From: a virus
Taxonomy: Duplodnaviria > Heunggongvirae > Uroviricota > Caudoviricetes
Virus record (IMG/VR): IMGVR_UViG_2681813269_000008
DNA: 10,773 nt
Strand: one strand, 5' to 3'
Below, one piece after another: positions 469 through 10,642 of the stretch. Below the pieces are notes generated by a model, which did no database searches, had not been told where the DNA came from, and was given only the letters and a program-made list of their open reading frames with translations. The translations under genes and the position numbers were made by a program. Within the stretch, counting starts at the first letter, position 1; the number at the start of each line of letters is the position of its first letter.

Positions 469-502
469 ATCCCGCCCCCCGACAGACCTGTGCTATCGGA
501 AA

Positions 503-534
503 GAAAAAAGGCCATCAGCAAAACTCTGATGGCC
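503..534 (-). terminator. Predicted rho-independent terminator (minus strand) just upstream of the holin gene
   Basis: Perfect 9-bp stem GGCCATCAG (510-518) / CTGATGGCC (526-534) with a 7-nt loop. On the minus strand the hairpin is followed by a U-run (complement of GAAAAAA at 503-509). Confidence 0.5.
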
Positions 535-579
535 TGAATCACCTTTACCAATATTGTATGAAAAAACACGCACGACTAA

Positions 580-608
580 TTGACAATAATTTTCATTTCC
601 ATTAAAAA
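580..608 (+). promoter_or_regulatory. Candidate sigma70 promoter on the plus strand (TTGACA, 17-nt spacer, TAAAAA)
   Basis: Consensus -35 TTGACA at 580-585, a 17-nt spacer, and a weak -10 TAAAAA at 603-608 in an AT-rich context. It points toward the terminator hairpin at 644-710. Prediction only. Confidence 0.25.
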
Positions 609-643
609 AGATCGCGTAGCATTCTTAATTCATGAGGAACTTT

Positions 644-710
644 ACCCGCCAGCAATCTGAGTAGCGAAAGCTGTTCATCCCCAATGTTTTTGCTGGCGGG
701 TCCTTTTTTC
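644..710 (+). terminator. Long-stem hairpin plus T-run; intrinsic terminator and/or 3' end of a candidate small RNA (plus strand)
   Basis: Perfect 11-bp arms CCCGCCAGCAA (645-655) / TTGCTGGCGGG (690-700) enclose a 34-nt loop with a possible internal GAAA tetraloop stem, followed by TTTTTT (704-709). A second weaker hairpin and T-run lies at about 722-757. Confidence 0.45.
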
Positions 711-1148
711 TACGGTCCTCCTCCCCGGAGGGGGGCATTTCATTATTTTTCTAATCGTTACTGGTGAGAAGGCGGAAGAAAAAGCCAGTTCTTCGCCCCT
801 AAATAACAGCATGATTCCAGTCCATGCAAAATCTGATTTCCAGCTCACACATACCGAGCGCTGTACAAAAAACCGCCAGCCAAGGCAGTTAAGAGTGTGT
901 TCCCGGGGTTTGCTTAGAATATTTTGTAAGTTGTCCGAAGAGATATTTACAACACCAGAATGATGAATCATCAGTCCCCTGCCAGAGGTTCACTACGTAA
1001 CCTGACCGACAATGCACCATTCTGGTGCTGAAAAAAGAGCACTGGAACTGCAACAAAACAACATCACAGAACAGGAGATGGTAAGGAGTCAGACATTCCC
1101 ACACAATATTGTGTCAGTGCAAATAACAACCTTCGTCTCAAATCTCGC

Positions 1149-1223
<75 letters not shown>

Positions 1224-1226
1224 ATA

Positions 1227-1302
<76 letters not shown>

Positions 1303-1304
1303 GC

Positions 1305-1381
1305 TGGCCCACCACCGAGGACTCGAACCTCGCACCGTCAACTTAGAAGGTTGATGCTCTATCCGGATGAGCTAGTGGTGG
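1305..1381 (-). tRNA. tRNA-Arg (anticodon TCT)
   Basis: Minus-strand CCACCACTAGCTCATCCGGATAGAGCATCAACCTTCTAAGTTGACGGTGCGAGGTTCGAGTCCTCGGTGGTGGGCCA. Acceptor stem CCACCAC/GTGGTGG, anticodon stem TCAAC/GTTGA, loop CTTCTAA, encoded CCA. Confidence 0.88.
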
Positions 1382-1382
1382 T

Positions 1383-1459
1383 TGGTGGCCCTTGCTGGAC
1401 TTGAACCAGCGACCTGGCGATTATGAGTCGCTCGCTCTGACCAACTGAGCTAAAGGGCC
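1383..1459 (-). tRNA. tRNA with CAT anticodon, most likely tRNA-Ile2 (lysidine-modified), ileX/ileZ-like
   Basis: Minus-strand GGCCCTTTAGCTCAGTTGGTCAGAGCGAGCGACTCATAATCGCCAGGTCGCTGGTTCAAGTCCAGCAAGGGCCACCA. Anticodon loop CTCATAA. The body resembles E. coli tRNA-Ile2 rather than initiator or elongator tRNA-Met, as I recall them. Confidence 0.85.
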
Positions 1460-1547
1460 GGAGGCAGAATAATAACCATATGTCATCACATCTGCAAACT
1501 CATCTGACCACCAGCACGTTTAACGTCCTGTGCCGTTTTTCAGGTAT

Positions 1548-1573
1548 AAAAAAACCCGCTCATCGGCGGGTTT
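1548..1573 (-). terminator. Predicted rho-independent terminator (minus strand) downstream of the ORF6N-like gene
   Basis: Stem CCCGC (1555-1559) / GCGGG (1566-1570) with a 6-nt loop. On the minus strand it is followed by a 7-U run (complement of the A-run at 1548-1554). Confidence 0.6.
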
Positions 1574-1648
1574 AAGCTGTGTGGCGTAGTAACCACTCTT
1601 AACAGGATATTCAACTTTTTACGATCGTAAAGTTTTCGGAAAAAATTT

Positions 1649-2218
1649 TTAAAACCGCATCAACCGCTCCACCAGTTGCTCTTTACGGGCAACGATCCAC
1701 CCGTGTTGCTCCAGATAAAATTTAAACCGTTCCAGAGTACATACCATCGCATCGGCGGGTACCTTTTCCGTGAACTCAACCTGACCGTGTTTATCGAAGT
1801 GGCTCAGTAATGCGCATCCATCATTTTCGATAGATGTGTTTTGTGCCGCTGGTGGCTGTTTCTGGTTGAAATAACAGTCTTCCAGTTTTTCGAACACTTC
1901 CCACGCCTGATCGGTTTCGAGCATTTTGGCGTGACGGGCTGCGCCACGTTCTGTCCAGAGGATGAGGGAGCGAACGTTACGGGCAATTTTCACAGAAACT
2001 CTTAAAGAGTTTTCGTTCTTCAACTCTCGTAACGCATCACCTTCTATCAGGAAAAAATGTTTACCTTCTATAAACCGTTCTTTGTTTCGATTGAAATTGT
2101 TTGTCAAACGCTGGCGCTCTGTTCCGTACAAATCAGCCAGCAGCTCTGTTGTCATGACAGGAAGATGGTTATGCGTAAGTGACGGGAGTTTTTCAATAGA
2201 CGTGCGATTCATAGACAT
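1649..2218 (-). CDS. ORF6N/KilA-N-like phage DNA-binding (antirepressor-like) protein; start uncertain
   Basis: The open frame runs 1649-2410 (253 aa). The conserved region starts near MSMNRTSIEKLPSLTHNHLPVMTTELLADLYGTERQRLTNNFNRNKERFIEGKHFFLIEGDALRELK...WTERGAARHAKMLETDQAWEVFEKL, which resembles the ORF6N domain by recall. An AAAGGA Shine-Dalgarno sits before the ATG pair at 2218/2212. The 64-codon upstream extension has no protein-like character. Confidence 0.6.
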   Translation of the reverse strand: MSMNRTSIEKLPSLTHNHLPVMTTELLADLYGTERQRLTNNFNRNKERFIEGKHFFLIEGDALRELKNENSLRVSVKIARNVRSLILWTERGAARHAKMLETDQAWEVFEKLEDCYFNQKQPPAAQNTSIENDGCALLSHFDKHGQVEFTEKVPADAMVCTLERFKFYLEQHGWIVARKEQLVERLMRF

Positions 2219-2573
2219 GTCCTTTCGAATATTTTGATTTACCCCTTTTGAGAGGGTGACCGGGCGCTCAAAACCGTCGAAAGTCGGCGGGCGTATTTCC
2301 ATTGCTGGTATTGTATTAGCCGCACACCCGGTCATAAACCAAGAATTCTGGACACAAAAAAACCACATGGCTATCGGGTGTGGATACCGCTTTCGAGGTG
2401 TTTTGAGCACCGCGGGGAAATGTAAACTGCAAACCTGAAACTGTCAACACCGTCAGGTTCCAATCATCGGGTGGTGAGACGCACAGGGTTGGAACTACCG
2501 GGAAACCGACCGGCGAGCTTTTCAGCTCCCCCATGCGCCCCACCATAATTCAGATGTGCGCGTGCATACGACA

Positions 2574-2597
2574 ATAAAAAACACGCTCGCGGCGTGT
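2574..2597 (-). terminator. tR'-like intrinsic terminator downstream of the late promoter (minus strand)
   Basis: Minus-strand ACACGC-CGCGA-GCGTGT hairpin (6-bp stem) followed by TTTTTTAT. It lies about 55-80 nt downstream of the predicted PR' start, as in lambdoid late leaders. Confidence 0.55.
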
Positions 2598-2658
2598 GTC
2601 TGTCGCGGTCTCTATCCGGGGTTCCAATCCCGACGCCAGATTTTGCTGGCGCGTGAGG

Positions 2659-2688
2659 AATATAGCCCCGGACAATGTGTCTGGTCAA
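2659..2688 (-). promoter_or_regulatory. PR'-like late promoter immediately downstream of Q
   Basis: Minus-strand TTGACC (-35, plus 2683-2688), 18-nt spacer, TATATT (-10, plus 2659-2664). It begins 5 bp after the Q stop codon, the canonical lambdoid position for PR'. Confidence 0.55.
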
Positions 2689-2692
2689 GCAC

Positions 2693-3079
2693 CTACATAA
2701 TTCGTTCTACGTATCTGTCCATCTCCAGCCGGATATCAAGCATCATCAACATGCCATCAATAACCCCTTCCGCTTTCTGCAGGCGCTTGCCAATACAGGT
2801 ATCCGAACACCCATGTTTCCGTGCCAGACTCATAAAAGTCATTCCACCTACGTAATAATCCACCAGCAAATCGTGCAAATCCTGATTTTTCTTGTTCAAC
2901 CGGGCCATACAGCCACAAATTATCATTGCATCATCATCAGAACACTGAGGGCGTGATTTCACTTTCGACGGAATTAACCCTTTAAAACCAGCAGCGATCG
3001 ACGCCCAGGATACATCTTCATGAGTGTTTGCAGCCCAAGCCCCCCACCGTTCCATAACCTGCTGAATATCACGCGCCAT
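2693..3079 (-). CDS. Late antiterminator Q (phage antitermination Q family, QuuD/phage 82-like)
   Basis: [121 protein letters not shown] closely resembles QuuD-type Q proteins as I recall them. The track ORF extends to 3100, but the ATG at 3079 has a good AGGTGA Shine-Dalgarno and overlaps the rusA stop. Confidence 0.85.
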
Positions 3080-3440
3080 CGTTATCACCTGTGATTTCAT
3101 AAATCTTCACGCCCAGTCGCCCACCAGGAACGAGCTGACCGCGCACAATATTGATTTCATCAAACTGCTCGTCGTCTATGAGTAGTCCGGCATGCGTCAG
3201 CGCATCCAGTGGTGCTTTCAGGATATTGTCCAGGTCACGACGGCGCTTATCCGGTGGCTCTGCAATAATCTTTATCGCCAGCCTTCCGGACAGGTTTAAT
3301 TTCAGCCGCTGCTGGCGAACAATTAGCGTCACATCACGGCGATAACGCTCACCAACTTTTGATACAAAATATGTGCTGCCACGACGTCGCCAGTAAGTAT
3401 TCACCGTCGGCGGATAAGGTAAAATAAACTCATGGCGCAT
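3069..3440 (-). CDS. rusA: Holliday junction resolvase RusA
   Basis: 123 aa: [21 protein letters not shown]...[31 protein letters not shown]...[11 protein letters not shown]. This matches the RusA hallmark motifs (PPS/TxN, DxRRRDLDN, D/E acidic cluster). The start overlaps the upstream stop (TGATG). Confidence 0.9.
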
Positions 3441-3697
3441 CAGCGCAGCACCTCCTGCACCATTTTTTCAAACTTTCCAACTTTGGTTTCCAGCTCTGCC
3501 ACACAATCAACGAGCTCATCCACCGCTTTTTGTGCGCGATGTTTCGCCTGCATCAGTTCCCTGAGCGCTGGCACCATATCCCGACGAATGGCATCTTTTG
3601 TTACACCTGTTTTTTCCAGTTGTTCCGCCTGTCGCAACATTTCCTGCGCGTGTTTACGCAATTGTTCAGAGGTAAAAGTCATTGTCTGGTTGTTCAA
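3440..3697 (-). CDS. Small hypothetical phage protein, predicted coiled-coil, unknown function
   Basis: 85-codon frame between the helicase and rusA. The 5'-most start is TTG, overlapping the helicase stop; an internal ATG lies at 3682. Charged, heptad-like sequence (EQLRKHAQEMLRQAEQLEK...). No family recognised. Confidence 0.5.
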   Translation of the reverse strand: MNNQTMTFTSEQLRKHAQEMLRQAEQLEKTGVTKDAIRRDMVPALRELMQAKHRAQKAVDELVDCVAELETKVGKFEKMVQEVLR

Positions 3698-5085
3698 AAG
3701 AAACGCTCCATCTTACTGCTGTCGGTACGTGTATTGCTGTATCTGCGCGGCTGGGGCTGCCGCATTGGGGTGGAAAGAACCTGTGCGCTTTCCTGGTCCA
3801 CAGGCAGAAAATGTCCGTTATAAAAACGCCGGTAAATCGTCCCCAGAGAACCGTTACGTTGTTTCGTGATATTAATTTCTGCTATGCCTGTAGCCTGTGT
3901 ATCCGGGTTGTACACTTCATCCCTGTAAAGCATCAGAATGATGTCTGCATCCGCCTCTATTTCTCCGGAATTTTTCAGGTCTGAGTTCATGGGACGTTTA
4001 TTGGGTCTGGACTCCACACCGCGGGAGAGCTGGCTCAGCGCAATCAACGGAAAACCACCGGATTTTGCCAGGCCTTTAAGCCCCTTTGAGATTTCACCCA
4101 CGGCAAGGTCATGACGCCCCGTGGTTCGGGTTTTTATCAGCCCGAGATAATCAACCACCACCAGCGCCGTTTCCGGATGTTTAATCAGATGGTGTTTCGT
4201 TGTTGCGCATATCTCATCAATGGTCAGGTTCGCCTGGTCCACCATCCAGATATTGCGCCCGGTCATCCGCCCCACCCCTTGTGAGAAACGCGCCCAGTCT
4301 TCATCTTCAAAGTGAGCCACAGATTTCAGGCGTGATACTGGCATCCCTCCAGCCGCAGACACCATACGTTCACCAATCTGGATGTTCGCCATCTCCATGG
4401 TGAACAGAAGCACACCATGCCCCTGCTCAGTCACCTTGTCGATGATGTCCAGCGCAAGTTCGGTTTTCCCCATCGAAGGACGGGCGGCAATGAATACCAG
4501 GTCTCCGGGCTCCATACCGCCTGTTTTTGCGTCCAGTTCATCAATACCGGTCATCAACGTCCTGGATTTCTCCAGCCCCTGATTCCGGCATTCAACACGC
4601 TCAACCACTTCCGGAAGCACATCATCAATATGTACCGGCTGAATGACGCCCTTTCCTGTCGACAGTGTGACCATCATGTTCTGCGCATCCTTCAGGGCAT
4701 CTTCAGCTGCTTCACAGGTATGCGCATCACGTAATTTCTGCAGCGCCTCATTCAGTGTTTTTTCTGCATCGCGCAGTGCGGCATTGCGCCGCAACGCTGC
4801 AACATAGTGCTCCAGTGAAGACTTCACCCAGGTTTTACGCCCGGTATCAGTAATCACCGGGGCAAGTTCCGGCATCTCATTACACAACAGCACGGGGTCA
4901 ATCACTCCTGAAACACGGGCCTGTCTGCAGATGCCTGTGTAGATATCCCGATACGCTCGTACAGAAAAAATGTCCGCCGGTAGTGTGATCAGAATATCCA
5001 TCACTTCATGATCTGCCCCACGCAGAAAGAATGCGCCAATGACAGCGCCTTCCAGGTCATCATTACGCCAGACTGGTGTTGTCAT
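3694..5085 (-). CDS. Phage replicative DNA helicase, DnaB family
   Basis: DnaB N-terminal-like region ([13 protein letters not shown]...) and RecA-like C-terminal domain with Walker [10 protein letters not shown], Walker B VVVDYLGL and [20 protein letters not shown]. The ATG at 5085 has a GAGGTG Shine-Dalgarno 9 nt upstream. The track ORF reaching 5145 begins at a GTG inside IS-derived sequence and is an artefactual extension. Confidence 0.9.
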
Positions 5086-5140
5086 GCAGCCACACCTCTG
5101 ATACAAGAACGGTAGCTGGGCCAGTTGAACGACAACCAGT

Positions 5141-5255
5141 ATCACTTAACCCATTACTGGCTTGCTGCCGTAGATATTCCCGTGGCGAGCGATAACCCAG
5201 TGCACTATGCGGATGCCATTCGTTATAATGCTCGAACGCCTCTGCAAGGTTCTTT
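5141..5255 (-). mobile_element. IS2-like internal fragment (3' end of the transposase gene) lacking the terminal inverted repeat
   Basis: The minus strand encodes ...[38 protein letters not shown], matching the C-terminus of the IS2 transposase as I recall it. The same sequence recurs at 10675-10773, where it is preceded by the 32-bp IS2-like terminus that is absent here. Confidence 0.6.
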
Positions 5256-5522
5256 AAAGCCGAAGCTGTCAGAACGGTTCTTGAAAATCAACTTTCGATC
5301 AGTGAAGGCGCTTCCCGATTATCTCTTCCTGAAGGCACTTTAGGACAATGGGTTACCGCCGCCAGAAAAGGGCTCGGTACTCCTGGTTCCCGCACGGTGG
5401 CTGAACTGGAATCTGAAATTCTGCAACTGCGTAAGGCGTTAAATGAAGCTCGCCTTGAGCGAGATATATTAAAAAAAGCAACAGCGTATTTTGCACAGGA
5501 GTCGCTGAAAAATACGCGTTAA
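5256..5522 (+). pseudogene. IS3-family orfA, N-terminally truncated (no start codon)
   Basis: Frame reads ...[89 protein letters not shown], a helix-turn-helix plus leucine-zipper OrfA. An in-frame TAA lies just upstream and there is no ATG. Confidence 0.7.
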
Positions 5523-5557
5523 TCGAACAATGGCGACAACAATTTCCCATTGAAGCG

Positions 5558-6376
5558 ATGTGTCAGGTATTTGGTGTATCCAGGAGCGGTTATTACAACT
5601 GGGTACAGCATGAACCCTCAGACAGAAAACAAAGTGATGAGCGGCTAAAACTGGAGATTAAGGTGGCACATATCCGCACTCGCGAAACATATGGAACCCG
5701 GCGGCTCCAGACGGAGCTGGCAGAGAATGGCATCATCGTTGGTCGTGACCGACTGGCACGTCTTCGTAAGGAGCTAAGGCTACGCTGTAAGCAGAAACGC
5801 AAGTTCAGAGCGACTACGAACTCGAACCACAATCTGCCAGTTGCGCCAAATCTGCTGAACCAGACGTTCGCTCCTACAGCACCAAATCAGGTCTGGGTGG
5901 CGGACCTGACGTATGTTGCCACACAGGAGGGATGGTTGTACCTCGCTGGCATCAAAGATGTTTATACGTGCGAAATTGTCGGCTACGCCATGGGAGAGCG
6001 CATGACAAAAGAGCTGACAGGTAAAGCCCTGTTTATGGCGCTCAGGAGCCAGCGCCCACCTGCCGGGCTAATCCACCACTCTGATCGAGGTTCACAGTAC
6101 TGCGCATACGATTACCGGGTCATACAGGAGCAGTCTGGTCTGAAAACATCAATGTCGCGTAAAGGTAACTGTTACGACAACGCTCCGATGGAAAGCTTCT
6201 GGGGAACGCTGAAAAATGAGAGCCTGAGCCACTATCGTTTTAATAACCGGGATGAAGCCATCTCAGTAATACGGGAATACATTGAGATTTTCTACAATCG
6301 TCAGCGTCGTCACTCTCGTCTGGGGAATATCTCCCCGGCAGCCTTCAGGGAAAAATATCATCAGATGGCTGCTTAA
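5558..6376 (+). CDS. IS3-family transposase OrfB (DDE integrase catalytic domain)
   Basis: 272 aa with the DDE triad context WVADLTY, HHSDRGSQY and CYDNAPMESFWGTLK. The frame is open from the slippery site at 5471, consistent with an OrfAB frameshift fusion. Because orfA is truncated, a functional fusion is unlikely. Confidence 0.85.
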   Translation: MCQVFGVSRSGYYNWVQHEPSDRKQSDERLKLEIKVAHIRTRETYGTRRLQTELAENGIIVGRDRLARLRKELRLRCKQKRKFRATTNSNHNLPVAPNLLNQTFAPTAPNQVWVADLTYVATQEGWLYLAGIKDVYTCEIVGYAMGERMTKELTGKALFMALRSQRPPAGLIHHSDRGSQYCAYDYRVIQEQSGLKTSMSRKGNCYDNAPMESFWGTLKNESLSHYRFNNRDEAISVIREYIEIFYNRQRRHSRLGNISPAAFREKYHQMAA

Positions 6377-6469
6377 AAAAAGAACAAATGGTAGTGTCCG
6401 CTATTGCCAGTACACCTCACACTCTATCCAACAAACCACCCACAGTTAATCGGAATAAAAGCAGAGTGC

Positions 6470-6595: not shown

Positions 6596-6601
6596 TCTGA
6601 C

Positions 6602-6676
<75 letters not shown>

Positions 6677-6679
6677 ATA

Positions 6680-6755
<76 letters not shown>

Positions 6756-6757
6756 GC

Positions 6758-6834
6758 TGGCCCACCACCGAGGACTCGAACCTCGCACCGTCAACTTAGA
6801 AGGTTGATGCTCTATCCGGATGAGCTAGTGGTGG
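6758..6834 (-). tRNA. tRNA-Arg (anticodon TCT), copy 2
   Basis: Identical to 1305-1381 (offset 5453). Confidence 0.88.
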
Positions 6835-6835
6835 T

Positions 6836-6912
6836 TGGTGGCCCTTGCTGGACTTGAACCAGCGACCTGGCGATTATGAGTCGCTCGCTCTGACCAACTG
6901 AGCTAAAGGGCC
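6836..6912 (-). tRNA. tRNA-Ile2-like (anticodon CAT), copy 2
   Basis: Identical to 1383-1459 (offset 5453). Confidence 0.85.
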
Positions 6913-7000
6913 GGAGGCAGAATAATAACCATATGTCATCACATCTGCAAACTCATCTGACCACCAGCACGTTTAACGTCCTGTGCCGTTTTTCAGGTAT

Positions 7001-7026
7001 AAAAAAACCCGCTCATCGGCGGGTTT
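7001..7026 (-). terminator. Predicted rho-independent terminator, copy 2
   Basis: Identical to 1548-1573 (offset 5453). Confidence 0.6.
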
Positions 7027-7101
7027 AAGCTGTGTGGCGTAGTAACCACTCTTAACAGGATATTCAACTTTTTACGATCGTAAAGTTTTCGGAAAAAATT
7101 T

Positions 7102-7671
7102 TTAAAACCGCATCAACCGCTCCACCAGTTGCTCTTTACGGGCAACGATCCACCCGTGTTGCTCCAGATAAAATTTAAACCGTTCCAGAGTACATACCAT
7201 CGCATCGGCGGGTACCTTTTCCGTGAACTCAACCTGACCGTGTTTATCGAAGTGGCTCAGTAATGCGCATCCATCATTTTCGATAGATGTGTTTTGTGCC
7301 GCTGGTGGCTGTTTCTGGTTGAAATAACAGTCTTCCAGTTTTTCGAACACTTCCCACGCCTGATCGGTTTCGAGCATTTTGGCGTGACGGGCTGCGCCAC
7401 GTTCTGTCCAGAGGATGAGGGAGCGAACGTTACGGGCAATTTTCACAGAAACTCTTAAAGAGTTTTCGTTCTTCAACTCTCGTAACGCATCACCTTCTAT
7501 CAGGAAAAAATGTTTACCTTCTATAAACCGTTCTTTGTTTCGATTGAAATTGTTTGTCAAACGCTGGCGCTCTGTTCCGTACAAATCAGCCAGCAGCTCT
7601 GTTGTCATGACAGGAAGATGGTTATGCGTAAGTGACGGGAGTTTTTCAATAGACGTGCGATTCATAGACAT
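7102..7671 (-). CDS. ORF6N/KilA-N-like phage DNA-binding (antirepressor-like) protein, copy 2
   Basis: Identical to 1649-2218; the track ORF 7102-7863 is the same extended frame. Confidence 0.6.
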   Translation of the reverse strand: MSMNRTSIEKLPSLTHNHLPVMTTELLADLYGTERQRLTNNFNRNKERFIEGKHFFLIEGDALRELKNENSLRVSVKIARNVRSLILWTERGAARHAKMLETDQAWEVFEKLEDCYFNQKQPPAAQNTSIENDGCALLSHFDKHGQVEFTEKVPADAMVCTLERFKFYLEQHGWIVARKEQLVERLMRF

Positions 7672-8026
7672 GTCCTTTCGAATATTTTGATTTACCCCTT
7701 TTGAGAGGGTGACCGGGCGCTCAAAACCGTCGAAAGTCGGCGGGCGTATTTCCATTGCTGGTATTGTATTAGCCGCACACCCGGTCATAAACCAAGAATT
7801 CTGGACACAAAAAAACCACATGGCTATCGGGTGTGGATACCGCTTTCGAGGTGTTTTGAGCACCGCGGGGAAATGTAAACTGCAAACCTGAAACTGTCAA
7901 CACCGTCAGGTTCCAATCATCGGGTGGTGAGACGCACAGGGTTGGAACTACCGGGAAACCGACCGGCGAGCTTTTCAGCTCCCCCATGCGCCCCACCATA
8001 ATTCAGATGTGCGCGTGCATACGACA

Positions 8027-8050
8027 ATAAAAAACACGCTCGCGGCGTGT
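8027..8050 (-). terminator. tR'-like intrinsic terminator, copy 2
   Basis: Identical to 2574-2597 (offset 5453). Confidence 0.55.
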
Positions 8051-8111
8051 GTCTGTCGCGGTCTCTATCCGGGGTTCCAATCCCGACGCCAGATTTTGCT
8101 GGCGCGTGAGG

Positions 8112-8141
8112 AATATAGCCCCGGACAATGTGTCTGGTCAA
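8112..8141 (-). promoter_or_regulatory. PR'-like late promoter, copy 2
   Basis: Identical to 2659-2688 (offset 5453). Confidence 0.55.
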
Positions 8142-8145
8142 GCAC

Positions 8146-8532
8146 CTACATAATTCGTTCTACGTATCTGTCCATCTCCAGCCGGATATCAAGCATCATC
8201 AACATGCCATCAATAACCCCTTCCGCTTTCTGCAGGCGCTTGCCAATACAGGTATCCGAACACCCATGTTTCCGTGCCAGACTCATAAAAGTCATTCCAC
8301 CTACGTAATAATCCACCAGCAAATCGTGCAAATCCTGATTTTTCTTGTTCAACCGGGCCATACAGCCACAAATTATCATTGCATCATCATCAGAACACTG
8401 AGGGCGTGATTTCACTTTCGACGGAATTAACCCTTTAAAACCAGCAGCGATCGACGCCCAGGATACATCTTCATGAGTGTTTGCAGCCCAAGCCCCCCAC
8501 CGTTCCATAACCTGCTGAATATCACGCGCCAT
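8146..8532 (-). CDS. Late antiterminator Q, copy 2
   Basis: Identical to 2693-3079; track ORF 8146-8553. Confidence 0.85.
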
Positions 8533-8893
8533 CGTTATCACCTGTGATTTCATAAATCTTCACGCCCAGTCGCCCACCAGGAACGAGCTGACCGCGCACA
8601 ATATTGATTTCATCAAACTGCTCGTCGTCTATGAGTAGTCCGGCATGCGTCAGCGCATCCAGTGGTGCTTTCAGGATATTGTCCAGGTCACGACGGCGCT
8701 TATCCGGTGGCTCTGCAATAATCTTTATCGCCAGCCTTCCGGACAGGTTTAATTTCAGCCGCTGCTGGCGAACAATTAGCGTCACATCACGGCGATAACG
8801 CTCACCAACTTTTGATACAAAATATGTGCTGCCACGACGTCGCCAGTAAGTATTCACCGTCGGCGGATAAGGTAAAATAAACTCATGGCGCAT
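8522..8893 (-). CDS. rusA: Holliday junction resolvase RusA, copy 2
   Basis: Identical to 3069-3440. Confidence 0.9.
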
Positions 8894-9150
8894 CAGCGCA
8901 GCACCTCCTGCACCATTTTTTCAAACTTTCCAACTTTGGTTTCCAGCTCTGCCACACAATCAACGAGCTCATCCACCGCTTTTTGTGCGCGATGTTTCGC
9001 CTGCATCAGTTCCCTGAGCGCTGGCACCATATCCCGACGAATGGCATCTTTTGTTACACCTGTTTTTTCCAGTTGTTCCGCCTGTCGCAACATTTCCTGC
9101 GCGTGTTTACGCAATTGTTCAGAGGTAAAAGTCATTGTCTGGTTGTTCAA
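8893..9150 (-). CDS. Small hypothetical coiled-coil phage protein, copy 2
   Basis: Identical to 3440-3697. Confidence 0.5.
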   Translation of the reverse strand: MNNQTMTFTSEQLRKHAQEMLRQAEQLEKTGVTKDAIRRDMVPALRELMQAKHRAQKAVDELVDCVAELETKVGKFEKMVQEVLR

Positions 9151-10538
9151 AAGAAACGCTCCATCTTACTGCTGTCGGTACGTGTATTGCTGTATCTGCG
9201 CGGCTGGGGCTGCCGCATTGGGGTGGAAAGAACCTGTGCGCTTTCCTGGTCCACAGGCAGAAAATGTCCGTTATAAAAACGCCGGTAAATCGTCCCCAGA
9301 GAACCGTTACGTTGTTTCGTGATATTAATTTCTGCTATGCCTGTAGCCTGTGTATCCGGGTTGTACACTTCATCCCTGTAAAGCATCAGAATGATGTCTG
9401 CATCCGCCTCTATTTCTCCGGAATTTTTCAGGTCTGAGTTCATGGGACGTTTATTGGGTCTGGACTCCACACCGCGGGAGAGCTGGCTCAGCGCAATCAA
9501 CGGAAAACCACCGGATTTTGCCAGGCCTTTAAGCCCCTTTGAGATTTCACCCACGGCAAGGTCATGACGCCCCGTGGTTCGGGTTTTTATCAGCCCGAGA
9601 TAATCAACCACCACCAGCGCCGTTTCCGGATGTTTAATCAGATGGTGTTTCGTTGTTGCGCATATCTCATCAATGGTCAGGTTCGCCTGGTCCACCATCC
9701 AGATATTGCGCCCGGTCATCCGCCCCACCCCTTGTGAGAAACGCGCCCAGTCTTCATCTTCAAAGTGAGCCACAGATTTCAGGCGTGATACTGGCATCCC
9801 TCCAGCCGCAGACACCATACGTTCACCAATCTGGATGTTCGCCATCTCCATGGTGAACAGAAGCACACCATGCCCCTGCTCAGTCACCTTGTCGATGATG
9901 TCCAGCGCAAGTTCGGTTTTCCCCATCGAAGGACGGGCGGCAATGAATACCAGGTCTCCGGGCTCCATACCGCCTGTTTTTGCGTCCAGTTCATCAATAC
10001 CGGTCATCAACGTCCTGGATTTCTCCAGCCCCTGATTCCGGCATTCAACACGCTCAACCACTTCCGGAAGCACATCATCAATATGTACCGGCTGAATGAC
10101 GCCCTTTCCTGTCGACAGTGTGACCATCATGTTCTGCGCATCCTTCAGGGCATCTTCAGCTGCTTCACAGGTATGCGCATCACGTAATTTCTGCAGCGCC
10201 TCATTCAGTGTTTTTTCTGCATCGCGCAGTGCGGCATTGCGCCGCAACGCTGCAACATAGTGCTCCAGTGAAGACTTCACCCAGGTTTTACGCCCGGTAT
10301 CAGTAATCACCGGGGCAAGTTCCGGCATCTCATTACACAACAGCACGGGGTCAATCACTCCTGAAACACGGGCCTGTCTGCAGATGCCTGTGTAGATATC
10401 CCGATACGCTCGTACAGAAAAAATGTCCGCCGGTAGTGTGATCAGAATATCCATCACTTCATGATCTGCCCCACGCAGAAAGAATGCGCCAATGACAGCG
10501 CCTTCCAGGTCATCATTACGCCAGACTGGTGTTGTCAT
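9147..10538 (-). CDS. Phage replicative DNA helicase, DnaB family, copy 2
   Basis: Identical to 3694-5085. The 510-aa track ORF (to 10679) is an artefactual in-frame extension across 49 bp of flank and the IS2-like terminus. Confidence 0.9.
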   Translation of the reverse strand: MTTPVWRNDDLEGAVIGAFFLRGADHEVMDILITLPADIFSVRAYRDIYTGICRQARVSGVIDPVLLCNEMPELAPVITDTGRKTWVKSSLEHYVAALRRNAALRDAEKTLNEALQKLRDAHTCEAAEDALKDAQNMMVTLSTGKGVIQPVHIDDVLPEVVERVECRNQGLEKSRTLMTGIDELDAKTGGMEPGDLVFIAARPSMGKTELALDIIDKVTEQGHGVLLFTMEMANIQIGERMVSAAGGMPVSRLKSVAHFEDEDWARFSQGVGRMTGRNIWMVDQANLTIDEICATTKHHLIKHPETALVVVDYLGLIKTRTTGRHDLAVGEISKGLKGLAKSGGFPLIALSQLSRGVESRPNKRPMNSDLKNSGEIEADADIILMLYRDEVYNPDTQATGIAEINITKQRNGSLGTIYRRFYNGHFLPVDQESAQVLSTPMRQPQPRRYSNTRTDSSKMERFF

Positions 10539-10642
10539 GCAGCCACACCTCTGATACAAGAACGGTAGCTGGGCCAGTTGAACGACAACCAGTTGCGCCC
10601 CCCGTCTGTGATCCTGTCGGCAATGCGGGGGCTGATGAACGC
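10535..10642 (-). pseudogene. 3' remnant of the gene upstream of the helicase (probable replication initiator or helicase loader), cut by the IS2-like insertion
   Basis: Minus-strand frame ...[35 protein letters not shown] ends in a TGA that overlaps the helicase ATG (ATGA coupling). The frame is open right up to the IS2-like terminus at 10643. No family assignment is possible from 35 codons. Confidence 0.35.

Follow-up and report, generated by a model that had tools for sequence, protein, structure and literature searches.

Antirepressors trigger the switch from lysogeny to lytic growth in temperate phages, and RNA control of their genes has been described in P1, P7 and Gifsy-1. In the immI region of phages P1 and P7, icd/ant is under the control of the c4 antisense RNA (Citron and Schuster 1990, summarised in PMC12197685); C4 pairs around the ribosome-binding site, or RBS, and thereby prevents translation of ant (PMC12197685). 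In Gifsy-1, where the gene order is antQ, isrK, orf45, anrP, the short RNA IsrK works in trans on the read-through transcript and switches on translation of orf45 and anrP; AnrP raises transcription of the antQ operon and induces Gifsy-1, and a processed species of ~80 nt, STnc1160, comes from the orf45 region, where nucleotides are conserved and amino acids are not (Hershko-Shalev et al. 2016, PMC4825925). Here we describe a locus in the IMG/VR virus record IMGVR_UViG_2681813269_000008, a stretch of 10,773 nt of Caudoviricetes DNA that we call the window, in which an RNA of a different family, sRNA-Xcc1, stands directly upstream of an ORF6N-domain gene. We consider it probable that this gene encodes a 187-aa antirepressor in a self-contained cassette, under a C4/IsrK-like RNA switch that would keep the antirepressor off.

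The sRNA-Xcc1 family has so far been treated as a virulence-linked, trans-acting small RNA (sRNA) of Xanthomonas and Xylella. Prior literature mentions in passing that two APSE phages carry it upstream of an ORF6N gene, and notes that it stands upstream of symE in integron cassettes of Xanthomonas, "suggesting a divergent regulatory mechanism." We found no paper in the searchable literature, which is incomplete, that ties sRNA-Xcc1 to C4-type control or to antirepressors.

The ORF6N gene and its leader

Coordinates are those of the window, and the features of the locus lie on the minus strand (-). The frame 1649-2410 (-) has 253 open codons from a GTG start. The original prediction, made from the letters of this DNA and a list of its open reading frames (ORFs), had taken it for an ORF6N-like gene whose recognisable domain and only good Shine-Dalgarno (SD) sequence lie downstream of a long, untranslated-looking extension. 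A Pfam search confirms the domain: ORF6N (PF10543) matches with E 1.5e-20 and 73.7-74.4 bits against a gathering cut-off of 27.8, and the match is confined to residues 79-163 of the long frame, which are residues 15-99 counted from ATG 2218 (189 aa) and 13-97 of the 187-aa protein. Two start codons had been offered, ATG 2218 (codon 65) and ATG 2212 (codon 67), and only the latter stands. The SD sequence AAGGA (2224-2220) lies 7 nt from ATG 2212 and 1 nt from ATG 2218, and ATG 2212 is kept in the nearest relatives, whereas ATG 2218 is not (it is ATA in Escherichia coli EC12). The true extent of the gene is then 1649..2212 (-), 187 aa plus stop. The same length is annotated by PGAP in EC12, whose locus is the closest one from E. 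coli (DNA identity 87%). Among the best 120 database homologues the length is mostly 184-188 aa, and a Shigella sonnei homologue has 187 aa at 99% identity.

The antirepressor label, also part of the original prediction, is supported by the PHROG 2379 anti-repressor profile (187 positions), of which positions 3-187 align to residues 2-187 (E 4.4e-85), and by identity to two Salmonella ORF6N proteins encoded behind isrK/C4 modules. Both proteins belong to one Salmonella locus (L002), and over their full length they are 60% (first module) and 58% (second module, behind a Q-like gene) identical to the window protein. The gene as such is unremarkable and belongs to an antirepressor family that is already known. 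Downstream, the gene has its own intrinsic terminator, as had been claimed (1545..1573; stem 1573-1552 plus a T run; dG -18.3 kcal/mol, z -3.3); a Trp_leader match at 1546-1619 (24.9 bits against 41) is merely this terminator.

The 5' extension (2213..2410) is filled with RNA elements, among them the Xcc1-type RNA (2250..2333). In-frame stops break it in 33 of the 36 related loci, the three closest included. The nearest in-frame stop upstream of the gene falls between RNA and ATG in 18 loci; 15 have it within the RNA, and only 3 upstream of the RNA. In EC12, Entomohabitans and Yersinia it stands 12, 6 and 30 nt upstream of the ATG. Since so many relatives carry stops, and carry them so close to the ATG, the open extension of the window is a chance feature of its lineage and non-coding. 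An open run of 64 codons is a ~5% event in random sequence. Could the 253-codon frame, or the 217 codons from ATG 2302, nevertheless be a real gene with an N-terminal extension? The frame is open in the window, and some Salmonella entries of 211-241 aa share ~30 residues of the extension at high identity, which at first sight overturns the idea of an untranslated extension. These entries take as their start the ATG 2302 equivalent or a site still further upstream, and in seven of them (P0001, P0006, P0007, P0009, P0012, P0013 and P0016) the N terminus, MGICPPTFDGFERPV..., is translated Xcc1-type RNA; we read their starts as probable annotation artefacts. Neither GTG 2410 nor ATG 2302 is preceded by an SD sequence. 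The former sits in the stem of the first hairpin of a predicted decoy RNA, the latter inside hairpin 1 of the Xcc1-type RNA, and the RNA and its target boxes account for the conservation of residues. The start of most homologues, and that of the PHROG profile, corresponds to ATG 2212. The first 64 residues have nothing significant in Pfam; a DUF3667 match (E 0.02-0.13) is below the cut-off and was dismissed. With stops even in EC12, we give a coding extension almost no credence.

An sRNA-Xcc1-family RNA and its predicted targets

What the original prediction missed is that the supposed untranslated region is a dense regulatory RNA module, made up of the Xcc1-family RNA, a decoy and target boxes. 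Four Rfam matches in the region exceed their gathering scores, all on the strand of the gene: isrK, c4-a1b1, C4 and sRNA-Xcc1. The last of these, at 2250..2333 (-), matches RF02221 over its full length (model 1-87 of 87; 77.4 bits against a cut-off of 53; E 1.8e-14) and scores 83.6 bits with model R1. It has a closing stem (2333-2325 / 2266-2258), two hairpins, a hairpin-2 loop CUUUCGA, a single-stranded joint GUUUUGAGC between hairpin 2 and the closing stem, and a 3' tail ACC, and we regard it as a putative C4-like antisense RNA. The structure comes from Rfam and the covariance model; RNAalifold on a MAFFT alignment was set aside, as it gave a mis-registered, weak consensus in which the closing stem was shifted by one column between sub-types. 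Across 35 distinct sequences, 87.4% of cells are paired and 18 of the 22 pairs show double changes. None of 500 shuffles reaches these values, and slid partners drop to 34-56% paired. Hairpin 1 carries an invariant internal loop, AAUACAAYA / GGRAAUA, for which a target sought by eye gave only a weak 6-bp match that includes a G-U pair. Of 33 Xcc1-type RNAs, 31 have a conserved RCC tail after the closing stem. C4 and CI RNAs are RNase P substrates, and the resemblance of this tail to the processed forms of both suggests that the Xcc1-type RNA, too, may be processed by RNase P.

The linkage of the RNA to the gene is tight. We collected 80 ORF6N loci from distinct species by a protein-pattern scan of species-representative genomes and searched them with the covariance model. 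All 38 matches (35 of the 80 loci, EC12, and the window twice) are on the gene's strand and directly upstream of the ORF6N gene, and no Xcc1-type RNA was found elsewhere in the 612 kb searched. The gap from closing stem to ATG is 40-53 nt in 35 of the 36 cases and 28 nt in the other. In 19 further ORF6N loci, IsrK and C4 occupy the same position, as found with our C4-type RNA model, and in such C4-type loci the C4 hairpin-2 loop also pairs with the SD sequence of the ORF6N gene. An Rfam search of 17 ORF6N loci with neither RNA gave no leader RNA besides one sar and one distant IsrK/C4, and in the rest of the 80 loci no RNA was detected at this position. The sar match, in Pectobacterium brasiliense (L057 3881-3952 (-); 47 bits against 43), is of the P22 type and lies opposite the ORF6N start region; it would be a third kind of RNA control for the ORF6N family. 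Entomohabitans teleogrylli has two tandem units of Xcc1-type RNA and ORF6N gene with different specificities (L007 3634-3726 and 4204-4298). Other Rfam matches were rejected: those to Plastid-ycf2 are tRNAs read on the wrong strand, and sR58 and mir-3132 are noise.

The RNA recurs in IMG/VR, where a protein-blind DNA-pattern scan for the conserved hairpin-1 core returned at least 80 loci (L083-L162). Among the matches listed, the model confirmed 86 Xcc1-type RNAs, typically 40-55 nt upstream of the ATG, and in 71 cases an ORF of 60 aa or more starts within ~220 nt of the matched core. These ORFs include Bro-N or P22_AR_N with P22_AR_C (21), KilA-N (15), AntA (12), ORF6N (8) and Rha (8). Given this variety of antirepressor-type genes behind it, the Xcc1-type RNA is a general leader of such genes and not specific to ORF6N.

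Two segments of the RNA vary from locus to locus, the hairpin-2 loop and the joint, and it is at these same two positions that C4-type RNAs have their recognition sequences. The window has two hairpin-2 (H2) boxes, both TCGAAAG, to which the loop CUUUCGA is complementary: one at 2228-2222, overlapping the SD sequence (the combined feature is 2220..2228), and one upstream of the RNA at 2396-2390. The joint is complementary to two joint (J) boxes, CTCAAAA at 2246..2252, in the loop of CCCU-CUCAAAA-GGGG, and GCTCAAAAC at 2408-2400. As in C4-type systems, there are thus target pairs both upstream and downstream of the RNA, and the downstream target covers the RBS. In most related loci, 7-11 nt separate the end of the SD-proximal H2-box from the ATG.

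Do the boxes change together with the RNA? We compared the longest Watson-Crick run between cognate and non-cognate partners over 27 distinct specificities, with p values from permutation. The hairpin-2 loop gives 7.07 against its own downstream leader and 4.35 against non-cognate ones, the cognate being best or tied in 24 of 27, and 6.85 against 4.95 for the upstream region; the joint gives 6.37 against 4.40 downstream and 7.11 against 4.96 upstream (p<=5e-5 in each of the four comparisons). A replication with 56 specificities among the IMG/VR matches listed returned the same effect sizes (loop to downstream leader 6.86 against 4.34, p<=5e-5), and bona fide C4/IsrK modules, used as a positive control, gave equal ones. 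The clearest single case of coordinated change is the window against EC12: in near-identical leaders, the loop changes from TTC to ACT, and the SD box and the upstream box both change from GAA to AGT.

The upstream boxes would belong to a short transcription unit of their own. A search upstream of the gene, as the original prediction had advised, found the sigma-70-like promoter site P2 (TTGACA-17-TACATT, 2419..2447) between the C4-type and the Xcc1-type RNAs. Of 34 distinct related loci, 33 have a TTGAC(N)-16/18-(-10) promoter upstream of the boxes at an equal distance. In nearly all loci 54-69 nt lie between the -10 element and the end of the T run, and the record of phage Nil2 marks a "promoter by homology" in front of its second module. 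From P2 we predict a decoy RNA of ~57 nt (2356..2413), in which a hairpin with the J-box in its loop is followed by the H2-box and then by a terminator hairpin (stem 2383-2379 / 2367-2363; T7 at 2362-2356). This order, target loops and then a terminator, is that of IsrK. The terminator is conserved across loci, and its stems vary among them yet stay complementary (by eye). Its loop (2378-2368 in the window, and its equivalents in L001-L081) carries a conserved CCCGNNAG motif in all three sub-types, and no partner was found for this motif. A LexA box over P2 (CTGA-N8-ACAG, ~2453-2438, seen by eye) was rejected: it is absent in EC12, and part of it is conserved C4 leader. With its own promoter and its own terminator flanking the gene, the cassette would, at the level of sequence, qualify as an autonomous unit. 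The original idea of a semi-autonomous, moron-like unit gains from the conservation of P2 and from the occurrence of the cassette elsewhere, in the nin region of phage Nil2.

A predicted switch and the readings that compete with it

Building on what sequence establishes (the domain, the start codon, the non-coding extension, the family and structure of the RNA, the conserved promoter and terminator, and the covarying complementarity), we infer transcription, RNA processing, a direction of repression, decoy action and antirepressor activity as follows. The cassette would run from P2 through the terminated decoy with its two boxes, the Xcc1-type RNA, and the second box pair with the SD sequence, to the gene and its terminator. 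The hairpin-2 loop CUUUCGA and the 3' joint of the RNA would pair with the downstream boxes and occlude the RBS, which, by analogy with C4, would prevent translation of the antirepressor in the lysogen. By analogy with IsrK, the upstream boxes would compete for loop and joint, whether in cis or on a freed decoy RNA, and so lift the block. Once made, the antirepressor would inactivate a prophage repressor and promote induction, and late in infection Q-modified polymerase from PR' may read through all three terminators. In its predicted design the cassette equals P1/P7 immI (a1b1-c4-a2b2-icd/ant) and Gifsy-1 isrK-orf45(C4)-anrP, built with another RNA family.

Several points weigh against this scheme. 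The sRNA-Xcc1 of Xanthomonas is reportedly a trans-acting sRNA. The thermodynamics of the window's Xcc1-type RNA alone, as a single sequence, are weak (z -1.5), and the decoy, likewise folded as a single sequence, does no better thermodynamically than shuffles. In the minimum-free-energy (MFE) structure of the whole leader, the upstream boxes pair in cis with the recognition segments of the RNA and the SD sequence is left largely free, so that the default of a read-through transcript could be ON, not OFF. A few loci (L007, L015 and L017) have a weak upstream hairpin-2 box or lack it; in the first unit of L007 it mismatches its own RNA. The permutation tests ignore phylogeny. The ORF6N protein of the first module in L002 (L002 707) would be the AnrP counterpart by its position and numbering, not by a sequence match to SL2578. 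Finally, the established effect of the short RNA in Gifsy-1 is activation, exerted via an upstream ORF and translational coupling (PMC4825925), an arrangement that the window lacks.

Two other explanations of the leader have to be weighed. The Xcc1-like RNA might be an independent trans-acting sRNA gene, to which the ORF6N gene, with an ordinary leader, is a mere neighbour. The title of Chen et al. (2011) describes sRNA-Xcc1 as trans-acting in Xanthomonas, its Xylella homologues occur in extracellular vesicles and have predicted trans targets (PMC12189769), and an own promoter is what the cassette has. We nonetheless hold such independence to be quite improbable: spacing and strand relative to the downstream gene are fixed in 36 genome loci and in at least about 70 viral contigs, and both variable segments track the SD region and the flanking boxes of each locus, which would be unexpected if the targets were unrelated. 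Further trans targets, for example the ant genes of co-resident prophages, are compatible with the decoy-relieved switch that we favour.

The leader might also be a purely cis-acting switch, in which alternative intramolecular pairings set SD access or termination and neither a free RNA nor a trans decoy takes part; it differs from the switch we favour solely in cis versus trans action. The long helix of the full-leader MFE, between the upstream boxes and the recognition segments, fits such a device and resembles "structure A" of the Gifsy-1 isrK-orf45 transcript (PMC4825925). What makes us think it unlikely is the conserved terminator between the boxes and the RNA, at which most transcripts should end and come free as a short RNA of their own, together with the closing stem and RCC tail, which resemble those of processed C4 and CI RNAs. 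In Gifsy-1, moreover, the short IsrK acts in trans and a processed species of ~80 nt exists (PMC4825925).

Genomic setting and comparison with known systems

A second RNA module lies immediately upstream of the cassette. The original prediction had placed the gene between a terminator tR' and the tRNAs, and so it is (tR' 2597-2581; tRNAs 1459-1149), but what it called tR' is the terminator of an IsrK homologue, which is followed by a C4-type RNA. A promoter-like site (TTGACC-18-TATATT, 2659..2688, equivalent to PR' or PisrK) stands directly after the Q gene; its -10 element ends 7 nt before 2652, and its position would put the transcription start at the first IsrK position. The IsrK-type short RNA (2576..2665) bears the C4 RNA's a1/b1 target loops and has tR' as its end (Rfam isrK 2652-2576, 77.5 bits against 50; c4-a1b1 2665-2613, 50.1 bits against 46.7). 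The C4-type antisense RNA (2465..2552; Rfam C4 2550-2467, 71 bits against 45; our model R2, 94.7 bits) is the equivalent of Gifsy-1 orf45/STnc1160 and starts AUG GUG GGG CGC AUG. Its joint GUUCCAA has complements in the IsrK loop UUGGAAC and at 2461-2454, where comparison with 20 C4-type loci identifies a b2-like target box, ATTGGAAC (2454..2461). After this box and "ctgacggtg," the sequence switches at ~2447 to the -35 element of the second module, where other loci continue with the a2 box, the SD sequence and the gene; megablast places a mosaic breakpoint between query positions 263 and 290. The IsrK/C4 module (2665-2465) is an orphan, which has kept its a1/b1 loops, C4 RNA and b2 box while its own a2 box, SD sequence and gene have been replaced. 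It could control read-through, or silence the ant genes of other prophages in trans.

The window is a segment of a lambdoid prophage. In minus-strand order, a DnaB-type helicase gene (3694-5145) is followed by RusA (3069-3440) and by the gene for the Q antiterminator (2693..3100; Pfam Phage_antitermQ, E 2.7e-52; PHROG 79), the equivalent of Gifsy-1 antQ. Downstream of the ORF6N gene come a tRNA cluster, Met(CAT)-Arg(TCT)-Thr(TGT)-Gly(TCC), at 1149..1459 and, last, a holin gene of the phage-21 type (253-468). The ~680 bp between tRNA-Gly and the holin gene (469-1148 (-)) are without a convincing ORF: a 98-aa ORF at 675-971 has no Pfam match, and nothing is annotated in the equivalent stretch of 99%-identical E. 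coli prophages. We take this position to be the one where Stx phages carry stx. Elements of the hok/sok type (Rfam sok) lie near antirepressor modules in Salmonella (L002 1376-1526) and Photorhabdus (L009 2140-2286) prophages, and hokD is annotated near the EC12 locus.

A block of 3993 bp occurs twice in the window, at 1148-5140 and 6601-10593, with 100% identity, and it contains the helicase, RusA and Q genes, the IsrK, C4-type and Xcc1-type RNAs, the ORF6N gene and the tRNAs; therefore all features of the ORF6N locus are present twice. The second set is offset by +5453 (253-codon frame 7102-7863, ORF6N gene 7102-7665, Xcc1-type RNA 7703-7786, all (-)). Between the copies lies an IS3-type element (about 5240-6450; orfB 5558-6376), and the helicase frame of the second copy is 81 nt longer at its 5' end than that of the first. 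The repeat reflects either a tandem duplication, very recent and associated with the IS, or an artefact of assembly.

In phage Nil2 and in Stx phages, both modules are present in the nin region, each with its own ant gene (antA, antB). Since the cassette is found there as well, it is mobile between genome positions. In Nil2 (L082, AJ413274; 2488-2760 and 3527-3770), "ORF23" and "ORF57" coincide with the stretch that matches the IsrK and C4-type RNAs of the window, and we conclude that these RNAs were mis-annotated as ORFs. The stretch between antA and antB, recorded as a putative retrotransposon disrupting ant, corresponds to the module of promoter, decoy and Xcc1-type RNA.

It is tempting to go further and to see in sRNA-Xcc1 a second, structurally distinct class of C4-type immunity RNA, although we offer this wider view tentatively, as a possibility that we would not yet back. 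On this view the RNA and a promoter-proximal, terminated decoy would make up a portable three-part switch, which in Proteobacteria and their phages would gate antirepressor-type genes of at least six protein families (ORF6N, KilA-N, Bro-N, P22_AR_N, AntA and Rha) and, in integrons, probably symE toxins as well. Its specificities, dozens of them and mutually orthogonal, would serve as an RNA heteroimmunity code between co-resident prophages, and the orphan IsrK/C4 module would act in trans on the ant genes of other prophages or form the first tier of a two-tier relay. Antirepressors can cross-induce neighbouring prophages, among them Stx phages, where the cassette is present as antB. If Xcc1-type RNAs are indeed gatekeepers of antirepressors, hundreds of genome annotations as Rfam sRNA-Xcc1 would gain a testable function, and their interpretation as virulence sRNAs would need to be revisited. 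Annotation pipelines could drop spurious N-terminal extensions and small ORFs such as those of the 211-241-aa Salmonella entries and Nil2 ORF23/ORF57. The covarying loop/box pairs would be natural orthogonal RNA regulators, from which co-immunity or cross-induction in polylysogens might be predicted.

How does the locus compare with the systems that it resembles? With Gifsy-1 it shares the Q gene, the promoter, an IsrK RNA that ends at a terminator, a C4-type RNA and an ORF6N gene, with Q, IsrK and C4 in the same order. Gifsy-1 orf45/STnc1160 has two in-frame AUGs 12 nt apart. The Salmonella locus L002 has two isrK/C4/ORF6N modules; in the first, both AUGs match the published Gifsy-1 mutant coordinates exactly, and a 186-aa ORF6N gene has its ATG directly next to the 45th codon. 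The window differs in that its gene stands behind a second module, with its own promoter, decoy and Xcc1-family RNA. Its orf45-type frame (2546..2316) ends inside the Xcc1-type RNA, 104 nt before ATG 2212, with no AUGA overlap. Since this frame does not reach the start codon, coupling of the Gifsy-1 type cannot operate there. An isrJ homologue, sought downstream of the gene, was found neither in the window nor in L002.

As in P1/P7 immI, an RNA of ~80 nt would be co-transcribed with an antirepressor gene and has recognition segments in a loop and a joint, with targets on both sides that include the RBS, and specificity shifts by coordinated substitutions, as in the heteroimmunity of P1 versus P7. 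Unlike P1 C4, the RNA at 2333-2250 belongs to RF02221, for which no clan is listed, and not to the C4 family (RF01695, clan CL00128); it would therefore work like C4 while being filed elsewhere. Its hairpin 1 with the AAUACAAYA internal loop also sets it apart from C4. In contrast to P1, the upstream targets have a terminator of their own, as in IsrK, and the downstream target is the SD sequence of the antirepressor, with no icd-like leader ORF.

The CA RNA of phage N15 is a comparable processed antisense RNA system. The CI RNA of P4, with seqA and seqC, is among the systems discussed in PMC4825925. By their descriptions, both can be set beside the window as processed antisense RNAs that are flanked by complementary sequences and control anti-immunity or replication genes. 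They act mainly by premature termination of transcription, whereas in the window the downstream box overlaps the SD sequence, which points to translational control. Occlusion of the ant RBS by an antisense RNA is also what P22 sar/ant offers; sar, however, is a true cis-antisense RNA from the opposite strand, and the Xcc1-type RNA lies on the same strand, upstream of the gene. The sRNA-Xcc1 of Xanthomonas campestris is an integron-encoded sRNA, and in Xanthomonas it is described as trans-acting, controlled by HrpG/HrpX and located in integron cassettes, upstream of symE. In the window and in over 100 phage or prophage loci, by contrast, the Xcc1 RNA leads antirepressor-type genes, with complementarity to the SD region that covaries. 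What appears to be new at this locus is C4/IsrK-type antisense control built with a different RNA family and with a decoy of its own.

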